Shown: in pieces, positions 25,828 through 31,103 of the stretch
Layout of the letters: each line of letters opens with the position of its first letter
Position numbering within the stretch: the stretch's first letter is position 1
NCBI GenBank assembly: GCA_028704635.1
Contig: JAQWFB010000001.1
Location: 69,541-133,540 of the forward strand
Length of the DNA: 64,000 nucleotides
Source of the DNA: Candidatus Shapirobacteria bacterium
GTDB lineage: Bacteria > Patescibacteriota > Microgenomatia > UBA12405
Reading direction: 5' to 3'
The notes under the pieces: generated by a model
Databases searched by the model: none
What the model was told of the DNA's origin: nothing
What the model saw: only the letters and a program-made list of their open reading frames with translations
Program-made: the position numbers and the translations under genes

Positions 25828-25955
25828 ACGCTTTTCTACGGGGTGGGAATTGGAACAACGGTTCTAATGCCGGTGTCTAGACCCTCAATCTGAACAATAC
25901 GCCCGGCAACTCGAACAACAACATTGGTTTCCGTTGCGTGGCCCCTCTGCAGTAA
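25828..25955 (+). repeat. DGR template repeat (TR)
   Basis: 128 bp matching the reverse complement of 28731-28858. All 12 mismatches are at TR adenines. TR in target frame reads NAFLRGGNWNNGSNAGV*TLNLNNTPGNSNNNIGFRCVAPLQ (AAC-rich). Confidence 0.9.
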
Positions 25956-26109
25956 ATATTGTGGCCAGATCTTTGAATTTTGTATTCAAGGCCGTGCCAA
26001 AAATAATTACCAGCTTAAGACCAGGTGTTCTTTAAGAACCCGAAGATCAAATAATGGGGGAAAGGGGCAGGTACAGAAGATACTTGCTCCCTATCCTCCC
26101 CATTAAACC

Positions 26110-27158
26110 ATGCCCATATATGATGAAATAATTAGTTACGAAAATCTCCTCAAGGCTTATTTTCAAACCAGAAAATGTCGTCGATCCAAACCAAATTTCC
26201 AAAAAATGGAAATGAATTATGAAAGCATTTTGTCAGATCTCCAATGGAAATTAAAAAATCAGCTTTATTATCCTAAATCCTACACTAAATTCCTGGTTTT
26301 TGAACCAAAAAAACGACAAGTCGCTGCACCCCATTGTCATGATCGAATTGTTCATCATGCCATTATCAATATCATTGAACCCTTAACCGAAAATTTTTTT
26401 ATTCATAATTCTTATGCTTGCCAAAAATCAAAAGGCGGATTTAAAGCGAGATCAGAAATAGCCGAAGTTTATCGGCAAATGTATAAACAAACTCCCATAT
26501 TTTACGCCCTAAAATGTGACATTAAGTCATATTTTGCCAGCATTAATCATCAAGTTTTATTAACCCTTCTTAAGAAATTTATCAGCTGTGAAAAAACCAT
26601 AAGGCTGCTTCAAAAAATAATTAATTCCTATTCCGAAACCCCAGGTACCGGTATTCCCATTGGCAACTTAACCAGTCAATTGTTTGCCAATCTGTATCTC
26701 CATCCCCTCGACATTTTTGTCACTCAAATGGTTGGTGAAAAAAATTATTTTCGCTATATGGATGACTTTTTGATTCTTTCTCCTGACAAAGAATATCTTC
26801 TCAATCTAAGAATTTTAATGAAGGGATTTTTAAAATACTATTTAAAATTAAATTATCACCCCAAGAAAAATAATATCTTTAGAGCTGATAAAGGCGTTGA
26901 ATTTGTCGGCTATCTTATCAAACCTGACTCAATTACTATGCGTAAAAAAACTATTAGAAAATTTAAAAAAGACATAAAAAGAGGATTAAATTACTTAAAA
27001 AATTAATCATTGAGAATAAATTAGACGAGGCCGACATTTTAAAGAAAAAGTTACTAAGTTCTAAAAGTTCCCTACGTGGATTTTTAAAAGACACCAACTA
27101 TGAATCCAGAAATAATTTATTAAGAATTAATGGCATTATCATGCCGCCTGAACTCTAA
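26110..27158 (+). CDS. DGR reverse transcriptase; the C-terminal 50 aa are reached only after a -1 frameshift at the A_AAA_AAT run near 26993-27000 (first frame stops at 27006)
   Basis: IGNLTSQ (the DGR-specific replacement of QGxxxSP), catalytic YMDD in FRYMDDFLIL, and motif A D in KCDIKSYFASINH. Shifted-frame tail is IIENKLDEADILKKKLLSSKSSLRGFLKDTNYESRNNLLRINGIIMPPEL. Confidence 0.85.
27138..27154 (+). repeat. 17-bp direct repeat atcatgccgcctgaact, copy 1 (overlaps RT 3' end)
   Basis: Identical to 28266-28282. GC-rich in an AT-rich genome. Encodes ..IMPPEL* of the RT. Confidence 0.8.
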
Positions 27159-27187
27159 TAAACCATCAATAGACAACATTTCAACCC

Positions 27188-27216
27188 TTGACAATCGTCT
27201 AATATTCGTCTATTAT
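27188..27216 (+). promoter_or_regulatory. sigma70-like promoter for fic (TTGACA-17-TATTAT), probably leaderless
   Basis: TTGACA at 27188-27193, 17-nt spacer, TATTAT at 27211-27216, ATG at 27224. Confidence 0.4.
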
Positions 27217-27223
27217 TAGTCTA

Positions 27224-28265: not shown

Positions 28266-28282
28266 ATCATGCCGCCTGAACT
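28266..28282 (+). repeat. 17-bp direct repeat atcatgccgcctgaact, copy 2 (overlaps avd 3' end)
   Basis: Identical to 27138-27154. On the minus strand it encodes ..KVQAA* of avd. Confidence 0.8.
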
Positions 28283-28614
28283 TTAGTTGAACTTTGCCAA
28301 GCTGTTAAGAGTCTTCCAATCTCATTAATCAATTCCATAAAATGAGTATATCTTTTAACCGACAACATATTTATATCCTTTGACAATCTAACCTGGATTC
28401 TAAAAACATCCAAAAGTGTTGAAATTTGTTTTTGTTCTTCTTTTCGGTCATTTTTTGAATTAGCCACAATGGTTAATCGCAACATTTCCAAATTCGATTC
28501 CAATAATTTATTAGAAATCAAAAACCGTTGGCTTTTAGGAAATTTAGACACCACCATATTAGTGTAAAGATATAAGTCATACAATTTTTGAAAAATAATC
28601 AGGTGATCAGTCAT
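28267..28614 (-). CDS. avd: DGR accessory variability determinant (Avd)-like four-helix-bundle protein
   Basis: 115 aa. FPKSQRFLISNKLLESNLEMLRLTIVAN matches the Avd / 23S-rRNA-IVS family pattern FPKxE+FxLxxQ...N. Immediately downstream of the VR-bearing target. Confidence 0.65.
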   Translation of the reverse strand: MTDHLIIFQKLYDLYLYTNMVVSKFPKSQRFLISNKLLESNLEMLRLTIVANSKNDRKEEQKQISTLLDVFRIQVRLSKDINMLSVKRYTHFMELINEIGRLLTAWQSSTKVQAA

Positions 28615-28730
28615 AATTAAAATTTTATTAAAGATTTATTAAAAATTTATTAAATATTGTTATGGTTTTAAATCGCTTACCAGATCCCCAGATTTTTAGA
28701 TAAAAAAAAAGGAAAGATAGCTACGCTAAA

Positions 28731-28858
28731 TTACTGCAGAGGGGCCACGCAACGGAAACCAATGTTGTAGCCCGAGTTGCCGGGCGCATTGCTCAGAGAG
28801 AGGGTCCAGACACCGGCATTAGAACCGCTGCTCCAATACCCACCCCGTAGAAAAGCGT
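28731..28858 (-). repeat. DGR variable repeat (VR) at the 3' end of the target gene
   Basis: Encodes YAFLRGGYWSSGSNAGVWTLSLSNAPGNSGYNIGFRCVAPLQ*. Differs from TR only where TR has A. The 3' ~45 nt are identical to TR (IMH-like GC-rich end). Confidence 0.9.
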
Positions 28859-31103
28859 AAACGGTGCTGTCAGCATCAGCCACATCACTATAAGTATAAA
28901 TTCTTCCTACTCCCTGATTAGCATTCCAGGACGGGTTAGACGGCCTAATCGCATCATATCCTACCGAACTTCCTTGACCATTGTTAACCAAAATTCTTGT
29001 TGTTGAACCACTGGCAAAATCAGTCCAACCAAAACCCACATCCGGAGTTCCCGAAGTGGCCGAATCCGGTTCATCTTTCCTCAAAACCGTATTATCTGTC
29101 CATTCCCAAACATTACCCGCCATATCCCAAATAGTTTCTCCATTAGAAAGAGTCAAAGTTCGTTTTTGAGTTCCACCCGATCCACACGCAGTATTAACAT
29201 CTTTCGTCACCGTACCATAACAACCCTGGGAATCATCAGTTGATGCCTGAAGGGCAAAAGCCGGACCATTATCATTATGTCCAGAAGCCACAATCTTACC
29301 GCTTTGGCCAGGAGTAAAACCACAACTACCACCGTTGGAATCACACCAGTTACTGCCCATTTTTTCTAAATTACGGGCAATCGTCATGTACTCATTATTA
29401 GTTATCAAATGCCAACCCCGATCAGAACAAAGGCTTTTAGCATCAATTGCTGAACCATTATCTTGTGTCACATTAGCAATCGGATATCCCGCCGCCGATG
29501 ATACTATTTGCCTTCCGCCAGTATTACAGGGATATGAACTATTTGGCCAAGTATTATAACCTGTATCTTGAGTAATATTTCCCACTCCATCGCTGTTATC
29601 ATCACACTTAGCATTATATTTCATTACACAAAAATCACTGGTTCCATATAAAGGATCTCCTGGCACATGAATAAAACCAGTCGGACAAACCCTCTGGGCA
29701 TTACTAGCTTGAAGCGAATAATTTTTTCCCAAAGTTATCGCTCCACCAGAAAAATCAGCCGCTACTTCAAATAAAGTCCTATTGTATGGGTAAATCATCA
29801 CTTCATCAATTTTGCCATTAAAATAATTTGGGGTCGTTCCCGCCTTACCCACTAAAACCGCTCCTGGTGTTACCGACCACAAAGCCAAAGCTGGTGAAGA
29901 AATTAACCTAGCATTTTTGTAAAAATAAGCATTAGTTCCATCATAAGATACTGCCACGTGTGTCCAAGTATTAGCCTGAATCCCAGCTCCACTACTTGTC
30001 ACTGTTGTTCCACCTAAACTACCAAAATTTAACTCGCCACCACTAGTCAATTGAAAAGTATAGCCGCCAGTATTTGGCTGAGAAATAATGGCATAATTCC
30101 CCAAAGATGTCACATAAATCCAAGCTGATAACGTAATTGATCCACCCAATTGAAATTTAGAGTTACTGCCCAAATCCACATACTGACTATTGGCACTGGT
30201 TAATTGCAAACCATAATTTCTCACCCCAGTAATCCACTGTGCATTTCCAGAAAAATTTATCAAAGCCGCCCGAGAATAATTTGGGGCTTTATTCATTGTT
30301 TGATACCCAGAACCATCATCAAAACCTAATTTCACCACTGGTTTACCCCTTTCTTGTGAATAAGCCAGCGAACCGTCATTTCTAGCGCCAGTTGTTAATC
30401 TCACTTCATCAACGGTTCCATTTAAGAAATTACTGTAAGTTGAGGCTCCAGTTTTAGTGGTCGCCAAATAAAAATTTGAAGCCGTATCGGCCAAAGCCCC
30501 ACCCACACTAGCGGTAGTGCCTTCCCTTACCCCATTAACATAAATATAAATAGTACTCAAACTAGCATTGTAATATCCTTGCAATAAATACCATTGATTG
30601 GGCAATATTTGTGTTTGTCCCATCACTGTTTTAATATTGGCCGCCGTTCCATCCGTCGATACCTGAAACTTAGGAAAATTCCTTCCAGTCGAATCTGTTT
30701 CCACTGTTAATCTATAACTGCGAATATCCGTAGTTTCATCCCATTTTCCCAAAACTGTTTGAATCGTTCCAGAAACATTTGAAACCGCACTAAACTTCAC
30801 CCAAGCTTCAATCGAAAAACTGCCAGTTTGGGAAAACTCAGTACTATCCAGTGCCATCGCATAATTATTAATTCCATTAAATTTCAAACCCCTTCCATAT
30901 TTACCCACCCCTGTAGTCGGCAAGGAAGCACCGGTACTATAAGTAGCAATATTATTATTTCCCATTTTATCCTTAGTATTAGTACTAAGATCCGTCATAT
31001 CTTCAAAGTCATATTGAACCACCGGAGTATCCCAAACAGCATATTGCGCCGCCGCCTGTCGAAAAGAAAAAAGCCATAATAATAAAGCTATTAACAAACA
31101 CAT
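28731..31103 (-). CDS. DGR target: secreted protein with two LamG/ConA-like domains and a C-terminal C-type-lectin (FGE-sulfatase) fold variable domain
   Basis: Signal peptide MCLLIALLLWLFSFRQAAAQ. Two ..G(T/K)VDEV(R/M)L.. LamG-type segments. C-terminal RGGYW...GFRC signature of DGR variable proteins. Confidence 0.85.
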   Translation of the reverse strand: MCLLIALLLWLFSFRQAAAQYAVWDTPVVQYDFEDMTDLSTNTKDKMGNNNIATYSTGASLPTTGVGKYGRGLKFNGINNYAMALDSTEFSQTGSFSIEAWVKFSAVSNVSGTIQTVLGKWDETTDIRSYRLTVETDSTGRNFPKFQVSTDGTAANIKTVMGQTQILPNQWYLLQGYYNASLSTIYIYVNGVREGTTASVGGALADTASNFYLATTKTGASTYSNFLNGTVDEVRLTTGARNDGSLAYSQERGKPVVKLGFDDGSGYQTMNKAPNYSRAALINFSGNAQWITGVRNYGLQLTSANSQYVDLGSNSKFQLGGSITLSAWIYVTSLGNYAIISQPNTGGYTFQLTSGGELNFGSLGGTTVTSSGAGIQANTWTHVAVSYDGTNAYFYKNARLISSPALALWSVTPGAVLVGKAGTTPNYFNGKIDEVMIYPYNRTLFEVAADFSGGAITLGKNYSLQASNAQRVCPTGFIHVPGDPLYGTSDFCVMKYNAKCDDNSDGVGNITQDTGYNTWPNSSYPCNTGGRQIVSSAAGYPIANVTQDNGSAIDAKSLCSDRGWHLITNNEYMTIARNLEKMGSNWCDSNGGSCGFTPGQSGKIVASGHNDNGPAFALQASTDDSQGCYGTVTKDVNTACGSGGTQKRTLTLSNGETIWDMAGNVWEWTDNTVLRKDEPDSATSGTPDVGFGWTDFASGSTTRILVNNGQGSSVGYDAIRPSNPSWNANQGVGRIYTYSDVADADSTVYAFLRGGYWSSGSNAGVWTLSLSNAPGNSGYNIGFRCVAPLQ

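Follow-up and report, generated by a model that had tools for sequence, protein, structure and literature searches.

Architecture of the locus

We analysed a 64 000-nucleotide stretch of a Candidatus Shapirobacteria genome (assembly GCA_028704635.1, contig JAQWFB010000001.1, positions 69 541 to 133 540; hereafter the window), in which positions 25828-31103 carry a putative diversity-generating retroelement (DGR). On the plus strand, an intergenic template repeat (TR, 25828-25955) is followed by a spacer that is predicted to form a structured RNA (Sp, 25956-26109, 154 nt), by the gene for a DGR-type reverse transcriptase (RT, 26110-27159) and by a Fic-domain gene (27224-28252). Facing these on the minus strand are the accessory gene avd (28267-28614, 115 aa) and the target gene (28731-31103, 790 aa), whose last 42 codons and stop form the 128-nt variable repeat (VR, 28731-28858). 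All the parts of a DGR were thus found: RT, Avd, a structured spacer between TR and RT, and a LamG/C-type-lectin (CLec) target with a C-terminal VR. Contigs and loci from other assemblies that were compared with the window are referred to below by L-numbers (L001, L002, L006, L008, L090, L092, L095 and so on).

The inverted repeat formed by 25828-25955 and 28731-28858 (128 nt, 91% identity) is the longest in the region and was recovered independently by a repeat search and by alignment, in agreement with the initial annotation of this DNA. A base-by-base tabulation of TR against VR gave 11 mismatches, all 11 at TR adenines, which are replaced in the VR by G (7), T (3) or C (1). With 31 adenines in the 128-nt TR, the hypergeometric probability of such confinement is 3.5e-8. 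The initial annotation had also placed every mismatch on a TR adenine, and this part of it holds; its count of 12 does not, since the twelfth (AAC to TAC, at A25827) falls outside the repeat. The two positions directly upstream of the TR, 25826-25827, read AA there and a fixed TT in every VR allele. Likewise, the identical 3′ end, given earlier as about 45 nt, measures 38 nt in the window pair and 32 nt across all VR alleles. This invariant segment (25924-25955) is GC-rich and resembles an initiation of mutagenic homing (IMH) element, a plausible reading for the identical tail. Adenines that template variation number 28, all within 25828-25923, and a further three lie in the tail. When the TR was used as a pattern with its adenines masked, the VR was its sole further match in the 64-kb window and showed no mismatch outside the A positions; this search found no second VR in the window. 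The TR does lie upstream of the RT, as first described, at a distance of 154 nt rather than 155.

The target protein begins with a hydrophobic, signal-like N-terminus, followed by two LamG domains (Pfam Laminin_G_3, 3.5e-39, two stretches) and a C-terminal domain of FGE-sulfatase/C-type-lectin type (about 28734-29693; FGE-sulfatase 25.6 bits against a cutoff of 23.3). Searches of the Protein Data Bank (PDB) with phmmer returned no match for either the target or Avd; the target needed a profile. A profile built from its C-terminal 320 residues matched chain 5vf4 (3.5e-7), which is TaqVP, the DGR variable protein of Thermus aquaticus (10.1101/432187), and SUMF2 (6e-4), as well as FGE, EgtB and PorK chains. 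We accordingly assign the VR-bearing domain to the predicted CLec/FGE type, and the earlier description of a LamG-repeat target ending in a C-type-lectin-fold VR is sustained. The gene that follows the target, previously called Avd-like, scores 89.7 bits against the NCBIfam DivGenRetAVD equivalog (cutoff 80) and matches Pfam bAvd at 2.8e-21.

The spacer folds (z = −2.84) into three helices (25963-25998, 26024-26041 and 26052-26105), with a conserved single-stranded block, AATAATTACCAGCTTAAGACC, at about 26002-26022. Over eight clade sequences, 92% of cells are paired. The helices contain 11 compensatory pairs, compared with 4.9 ± 1.5 in shuffles (0 of 500 reach 11) and 1–3 in slid controls. 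A non-coding segment upstream of the TR, GGTTTTAGGTT (25813-25823, plus strand), pairs with positions 26012-26022 of the spacer block. RNAduplex recovered this duplex in the window, in L095 and in L092/L094, with compensatory changes in L092 (GGCUUUAGGCU/AGCCUAAAGCC); for L090, a pairing of GGCCUUAGGCU with AGCCUAAAGCC at 12 of 13 positions was judged by eye, while the computed optimum lies elsewhere. In the ribonucleoprotein of the BPP-1 DGR, a duplex between avd and Sp brackets the template (10.1101/2023.10.23.563531). The upstream:Sp duplex is a candidate equivalent, and suggests that the BPP-1 RNA architecture may persist even without avd upstream of the TR.

Directly 3′ of the VR lies a 16-nt motif, TTTAGCGTAGCTATCT (28715-28730, minus strand), which contains a 4-bp mini-hairpin (28718-28728). 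The motif is kept in L090 and L092 amid diverging intergenic DNA and was not found after the TR, making it a candidate target-recognition element. The mini-hairpin shows one compensatory change (TGGC/GCCA in L092); its fold is not significant by energy alone, and a BPP-1-like cruciform at this position is likewise unsupported by energy.

The reverse transcriptase and its frameshift

DGR RTs carry the motif [I/L/V]GxxxSQ instead of the QGxxxSP of group II intron and retron RTs, together with YxDD. The window RT has IGNLTSQ at residues 184-190 and YMDD at residues 216-219, as originally noted, and IGNLTSQ is unchanged in 36 relatives. The protein matches Pfam RVT_1 (6e-21). Its best relative in the PDB is the Bordetella phage enzyme bRT (8ub7, 1e-40), with a group II intron RT 28 orders of magnitude weaker at 4e-12. 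The nearest homologues come from Patescibacteria (Shapirobacteria, Roizmanbacteria and Levybacteria); a separate contig scan, in which the best RT identity was 44% and no close relative appeared, served as a baseline only.

As it stands, the RT open reading frame (ORF) ends early, spanning 26110-27006 (298 aa). A run of adenines at 26965-26970 has six residues (A6) in the window and seven (A7) in six other assemblies, so that A6 is seen in one of seven. After codon 285 this 1-nt deletion puts translation out of frame, so that the last 64 residues are replaced and the protein is shortened from 349 to 298 aa. The remaining 64 codons are undamaged in the −1 frame, up to a stop at 27157-27159, and adding one A to the run yields exactly the RT protein of L001 and L002 (349 aa, the length called in relatives). 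RT homologues of 347–390 aa cover 99% of the 349-aa form, with conserved C-terminal residues; the intact RT frame of a functional element is absent from this copy as assembled. Because the alignment with bRT stops at residue 286 of 328, the part lost would correspond to the end of the thumb region.

We read the deletion as either a private slip mutation or an assembly error, because the tract is not conserved beyond close relatives (it is interrupted or absent in those with an RT identity of 72% or below) and because such runs are common. The window holds 108 A or T runs of at least 7, and an A-run in the RT is therefore expected from composition. Of the two readings we lean towards a real slip mutation, in which case this copy would now be disabled and its VR frozen. 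Real genomes are on record in which an RT frameshift accompanies an undamaged, A-only TR/VR pair (PMC3521204), and the deletion is the sole coding homopolymer indel in the approximately 13 kb common to the siblings, unlike what an error-prone assembly would give. Both points tell against a homopolymer assembly or sequencing error, under which the true RT would have 349 aa and the DGR would be fully intact and active. The error is nevertheless a possibility to be taken seriously, at somewhat below even odds: the six sibling assemblies all have A7, the sequence after the deletion is whole in the −1 frame with no further lesions, and the window VR is itself a unique, in-frame, A-only allele.

A programmed switch, by ribosomal −1 or transcriptional slippage on AAAAAAG or by an A6/A7 contingency toggle of hypermutation, is very improbable. 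It would account for the location of the deletion in an A-run, and by sequence logic a −1 shift on the second AAA codon gives exactly the sibling sequence KFKKRHKK. However, the heptamer does not have the phase that a canonical X_XXY_YYZ site requires, six adenines are short for transcriptional slippage, and only one assembly in seven carries A6. The contingency-tract reading in particular was rejected on the grounds given above, namely the lack of conservation at or below 72% RT identity and the abundance of long A/T runs in the window.

Variable repeat alleles in sister strains

Exact look-ups of the window Avd and Fic proteins, together with a DNA probe, retrieved near-identical contigs (98.3–99.9% identity), while exact look-ups of the RT, the target and a long MltG/YceG form gave no hit. 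These siblings are Candidatus Shapirobacteria metagenome-assembled genomes, where the identical protein already bears the name DGR Avd at NCBI. Including that of the window, seven VR alleles (six further ones) were found on 98–99.9% identical backbones from different samples. In five of the seven, the differences from the TR are confined to A sites; variation in one allele or more affects 26 of the 28 adenines of 25828-25923, while the three tail adenines never vary. L001 differs from the window at 17 VR positions, whereas about 8 kb of flank shows a single substitution and a single indel; L008 differs at 12 VR positions, with just the indel elsewhere. Since the VRs of sister strains differ almost only at TR-adenine sites, the DGR has been actively diversifying in this population.

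The TR is identical to that of the window in L002, L006 and L097. In L098 it has a single T>A change at the equivalent of window position 25851, which creates a new adenine and potentially a new variable site. In L003, substitution clusters resembling those of a diverged tract among the secretion genes (see below) lie in the body of the target gene (29011-29118 and 29649-29919).

Identity and proposed mechanism

From these features we conclude that the window element is, with a probability of about 0.9, a bona fide DGR of the Patescibacteria (candidate phyla radiation, CPR) lineage, with a BPP-1-like mechanism predicted by homology. The original call of a DGR is borne out by bRT as the best solved relative of the RT, by an Avd above the equivalog cutoff, by the A-only mismatches and by a VR domain of CLec type. 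Calling it complete, or a textbook case, was an overstatement, given a frameshifted RT, a SoFic-like Fic gene inside the cassette, the rarity of TR and VR on opposite strands and a stop codon in the TR. The element is an ordinary example of a documented class (CPR DGRs, PMC8144416) and adds little in itself: Patescibacteria DGRs are well documented, and its Avd was already labelled a DGR protein by NCBI. Its value is that of a well-resolved natural example, in which a single backbone with seven alleles displays diversification outside the laboratory. The sister-strain comparison also reveals two routes by which DGRs may fail, the RT frameshift and a premature stop apparently written by the DGR (see below).

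By homology with BPP-1, a transcript of the upstream segment, TR and Sp would fold so that the upstream:Sp duplex brackets the TR, and RT and Avd would bind the Sp stem-loops. RT would then copy the TR into cDNA, misincorporating opposite adenines, and the cDNA would replace the VR at the 3′ end of the target gene. Up to 28 positions could be recoded in this way in the ligand-binding face of a C-type-lectin-fold domain, carried on a secreted or surface LamG protein.

The BPP-1 system (bRT, Avd, TR, Sp RNA and Mtd) resembles the window element in several respects. The RTs are homologous over almost the whole aligned core (1e-40), Avd is present in both, information flows from TR to VR with adenine specificity, and the VR lies at the C-terminus of a C-type-lectin-fold domain. 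The Sp RNAs have in common a stem-loop near the start, a conserved unpaired stretch and, ahead of the RT, a long stem-loop, along with the upstream:Sp duplex (10.1101/2023.10.23.563531). The differences are also clear. The window DGR is cellular and borne on a putative integrative and conjugative element (ICE), whereas BPP-1 is a phage; its order is TR-RT converging on avd-target, compared with mtd-avd-TR-brt; and its TR is preceded by a non-coding segment where BPP-1 has the 3′ end of avd. An IMH/IMH* mismatch is lacking, and only the 4-bp mini-hairpin stands 3′ of the VR. The target has the composition LamG-LamG-CLec, a defence gene lies within the cassette and, in this copy, the RT is frameshifted.

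Parallels are also found among the DGRs of Patescibacteria/CPR (clade 2 of Roux et al. 2021, PMC8144416), which share Patescibacteria RT homologues, a cellular setting and an FGE-sulfatase/CLec target ending in GFRC; taxonomy, the only basis used, would place the window RT in this clade. Schillinger et al. 2012 (PMC3521204) described an RT frameshift alongside an A-only TR/VR pair in Bacteroides sp. 9_1_42FAA, and DGRs with parts split over two strands. In their inverted DGRs, however, the RT alone opposes TR, VR and target, while in the window the TR stays with the RT, and the VR and avd are inverted. TaqVP (PDB 5VF4) is the best solved relative of the VR domain (E = 3.5e-7), and the match includes the RGGxW...G(F/A)R segment of the VR. 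Identity is low, and the window protein differs in having two extra N-terminal LamG domains and a signal-like N-terminus.

Several observations weigh against a functional, BPP-1-like DGR. The truncated RT ORF makes present activity of this copy doubtful. No TR/VR difference of the IMH/IMH* type was seen inside the repeat, and judged by fold energy no strong hairpin like that of BPP-1 was found 3′ of the VR. cDNA synthesis and retrohoming are proposed here from homology with BPP-1, not from direct observation, and the direction of replication considered below is read from GC skew only. The VR alleles come from consensus assemblies rather than reads, so that what they say of diversification applies at the population level. 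Finally, two alleles depart from strict adenine specificity: the L006 VR has one non-A difference from its own TR, and the L002 VR (734-861) has 10 from its own TR (3638-3765), mostly synonymous. Six of these 10 states match the TR of L095, a 92%-identical relative; the other four do not. We rejected non-adenine mutagenesis in L002 on account of the L095-type states and the mostly synonymous changes, which suggest that these differences derive from a different TR allele or from inter-strain recombination.

The proposal that the locus is not a DGR at all, with a group II intron, retron or defence RT beside a decayed duplication of the target gene 3′ end, can be set aside as having next to no likelihood: the RT does match such models, but weakly (group_II_RT_mat 120.7 against a cutoff of 300, Drt3a 70 against 200, retron 55 against 235), Rfam at its gathering threshold found tRNAs only and no intron or retron RNA, Avd is present, mismatches are exclusively at adenines in five of seven alleles, and a decayed duplicate would not give seven A-site alleles on identical backbones.

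A stop codon in the template

The TR contains an in-frame TAG (25878-25880), opposite which the VR has TGG (28806-28808); alignment confirmed this difference, which had been pointed out in the initial annotation. L095, whose TR has diverged, likewise has the TAG, and the corresponding codon of L090 and L092 is an invariant Phe. Among the six complete VR alleles, five have TGG. The sixth, L008 (VR at 2366-2493), keeps TAG, so that its target gene stops 25 codons too early; this is apparently a natural null allele written by the DGR itself. Reassignment of TAG, as an explanation for the codon in the TR and in L008, found no support: code 11 leaves the long ORFs unbroken, and two of 38 of them end in TAG.

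In-frame TR stops occur in three of 56 other DGR loci, all CPR and two of them on the same VR scaffold; across the 58 sampled loci, every TR-stop case is in a CPR genome. The two on the RGGxW...GFRC scaffold are L076 (6758-6880, Parcubacteria) and L068 (725-844, Dojkabacteria), where the in-frame TAG stands at Trp/Leu codons; that of L076 is located at the conserved Trp of RGGxW.

We treat the TR TAG as a tolerated cost. An unlikely alternative is that it is a maintained feature, which makes the DGR an on/off switch of its surface protein; the basis for this is the TAG in two diverged TR alleles and in the L008 VR, with similar TAGs in L076 and L068. Were it true, faithful copying of the TAG adenine would truncate the last 25 residues of the adhesin and A>G alone would restore the conserved Trp, so that hypermutation would be linked to a random disappearance and return of the surface protein.

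Inverted layout and replication direction

The target-avd arm is inverted relative to the TR-RT arm, as first described, and the arrangement is conserved in the clade: the convergent order, TR-RT facing avd-target, is kept in relatives with 63–92% RT identity. TR and VR occupy opposite strands in only one of another 56 DGR loci where a TR/VR pair was detectable, and Schillinger et al. 2012 report this only for the remote VRs of Pseudogulbenkiania (PMC3521204). GC skew of the plus strand is negative (about −0.16) and all but one of the 14 tRNAs are encoded on the minus strand; the minus-strand target is therefore probably co-directional with replication. DGR editing is reported to favour targets co-directional with replication (PMC12875486), a preference with which the conserved inverted layout agrees. 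At 32-40 kb, in contrast to the remainder of the window, the GC skew rises to slightly positive values.

Cargo and neighbouring genes

The Fic gene at 27224-28252 (plus strand; Pfam Fic, 1.2e-19) has an active-site motif, HPFMDGNGRTTR, an inhibitory-helix motif, STSIEG, and a promoter-like site at 27188-27216 (match 11/12). It matches PADLOC SoFic (1.6e-46) over model positions 60-350 of 361, and scores 65 bits against the NCBIfam SoFic equivalog (cutoff 550). A role as a DGR accessory was rejected: 80 diverse DGR loci all lack this Fic gene, and relatives have it at another place or have other genes instead. L092 carries an 87%-identical Fic ortholog outside the cassette. The slot itself holds another SoFic in L099 (29% identity; 1296-2456), AbiEi/AbiEii in L090 (9126-10397), L095 (2175-3295) and L096 (1230-2508), PDC-S01 in L101 (1637-1978), and nothing in L092 and L100. 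In different members this cargo sits either at the convergent RT/avd junction or at the avd/target junction. We class the Fic gene as exchangeable cargo with a predicted defence role, and not as part of the DGR. The cassette junction may be an insertion hotspot for defence genes, and its variable contents could interest researchers who study defence-island hotspots of mobile elements.

The region around the DGR looks like an ICE-like island. Type IV secretion system (T4SS) genes lie at 18974-23474, and the island also takes in 35019-41199; its genes include a TraG/VirB4-like ATPase, PrgI, a TrbL and pilin fusion, a TrbC/VirB2 pilin, Replic_Relax and a type IV coupling protein. It also has a large serine recombinase adjoining tRNA-Leu/Lys. 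In L090, Replic_Relax and a resolvase are found beside the DGR target.

The island also carries an ABC-3C system of three genes (31241-34230, plus strand), which encodes a 337-aa protein without a family, the middle component MC6 (PF20293, 4.7e-7) and a DUF2326 ATPase (PADLOC PDC-M68B, 2.5e-74); a DUF2958 gene comes next (34468-34770). On the other side of the DGR, the gene at 24703-25248 (minus strand) encodes a membrane-anchored protein of 181 aa that matches no family. In every clade relative examined (62–84% identity) it is kept as the divergent neighbour of TR-RT, and it could be an unrecognized accessory gene or reflect mere conserved synteny. Between this gene and the TR, a 79-aa ORF (25318-25557, plus strand) weakly matches the C-terminal end of DUF3800 and is probably a gene remnant. 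Within the T4SS segment, window positions 21227-22260 diverge by about 10% from L006 (99 substitutions in 1 kb); elsewhere the two contigs share about 99.9% identity. The diverged stretch spans the 3′ part of the TrbL/pilin-fusion gene and the next gene downstream, and is either a recombination tract or a fast-evolving T4SS surface component.

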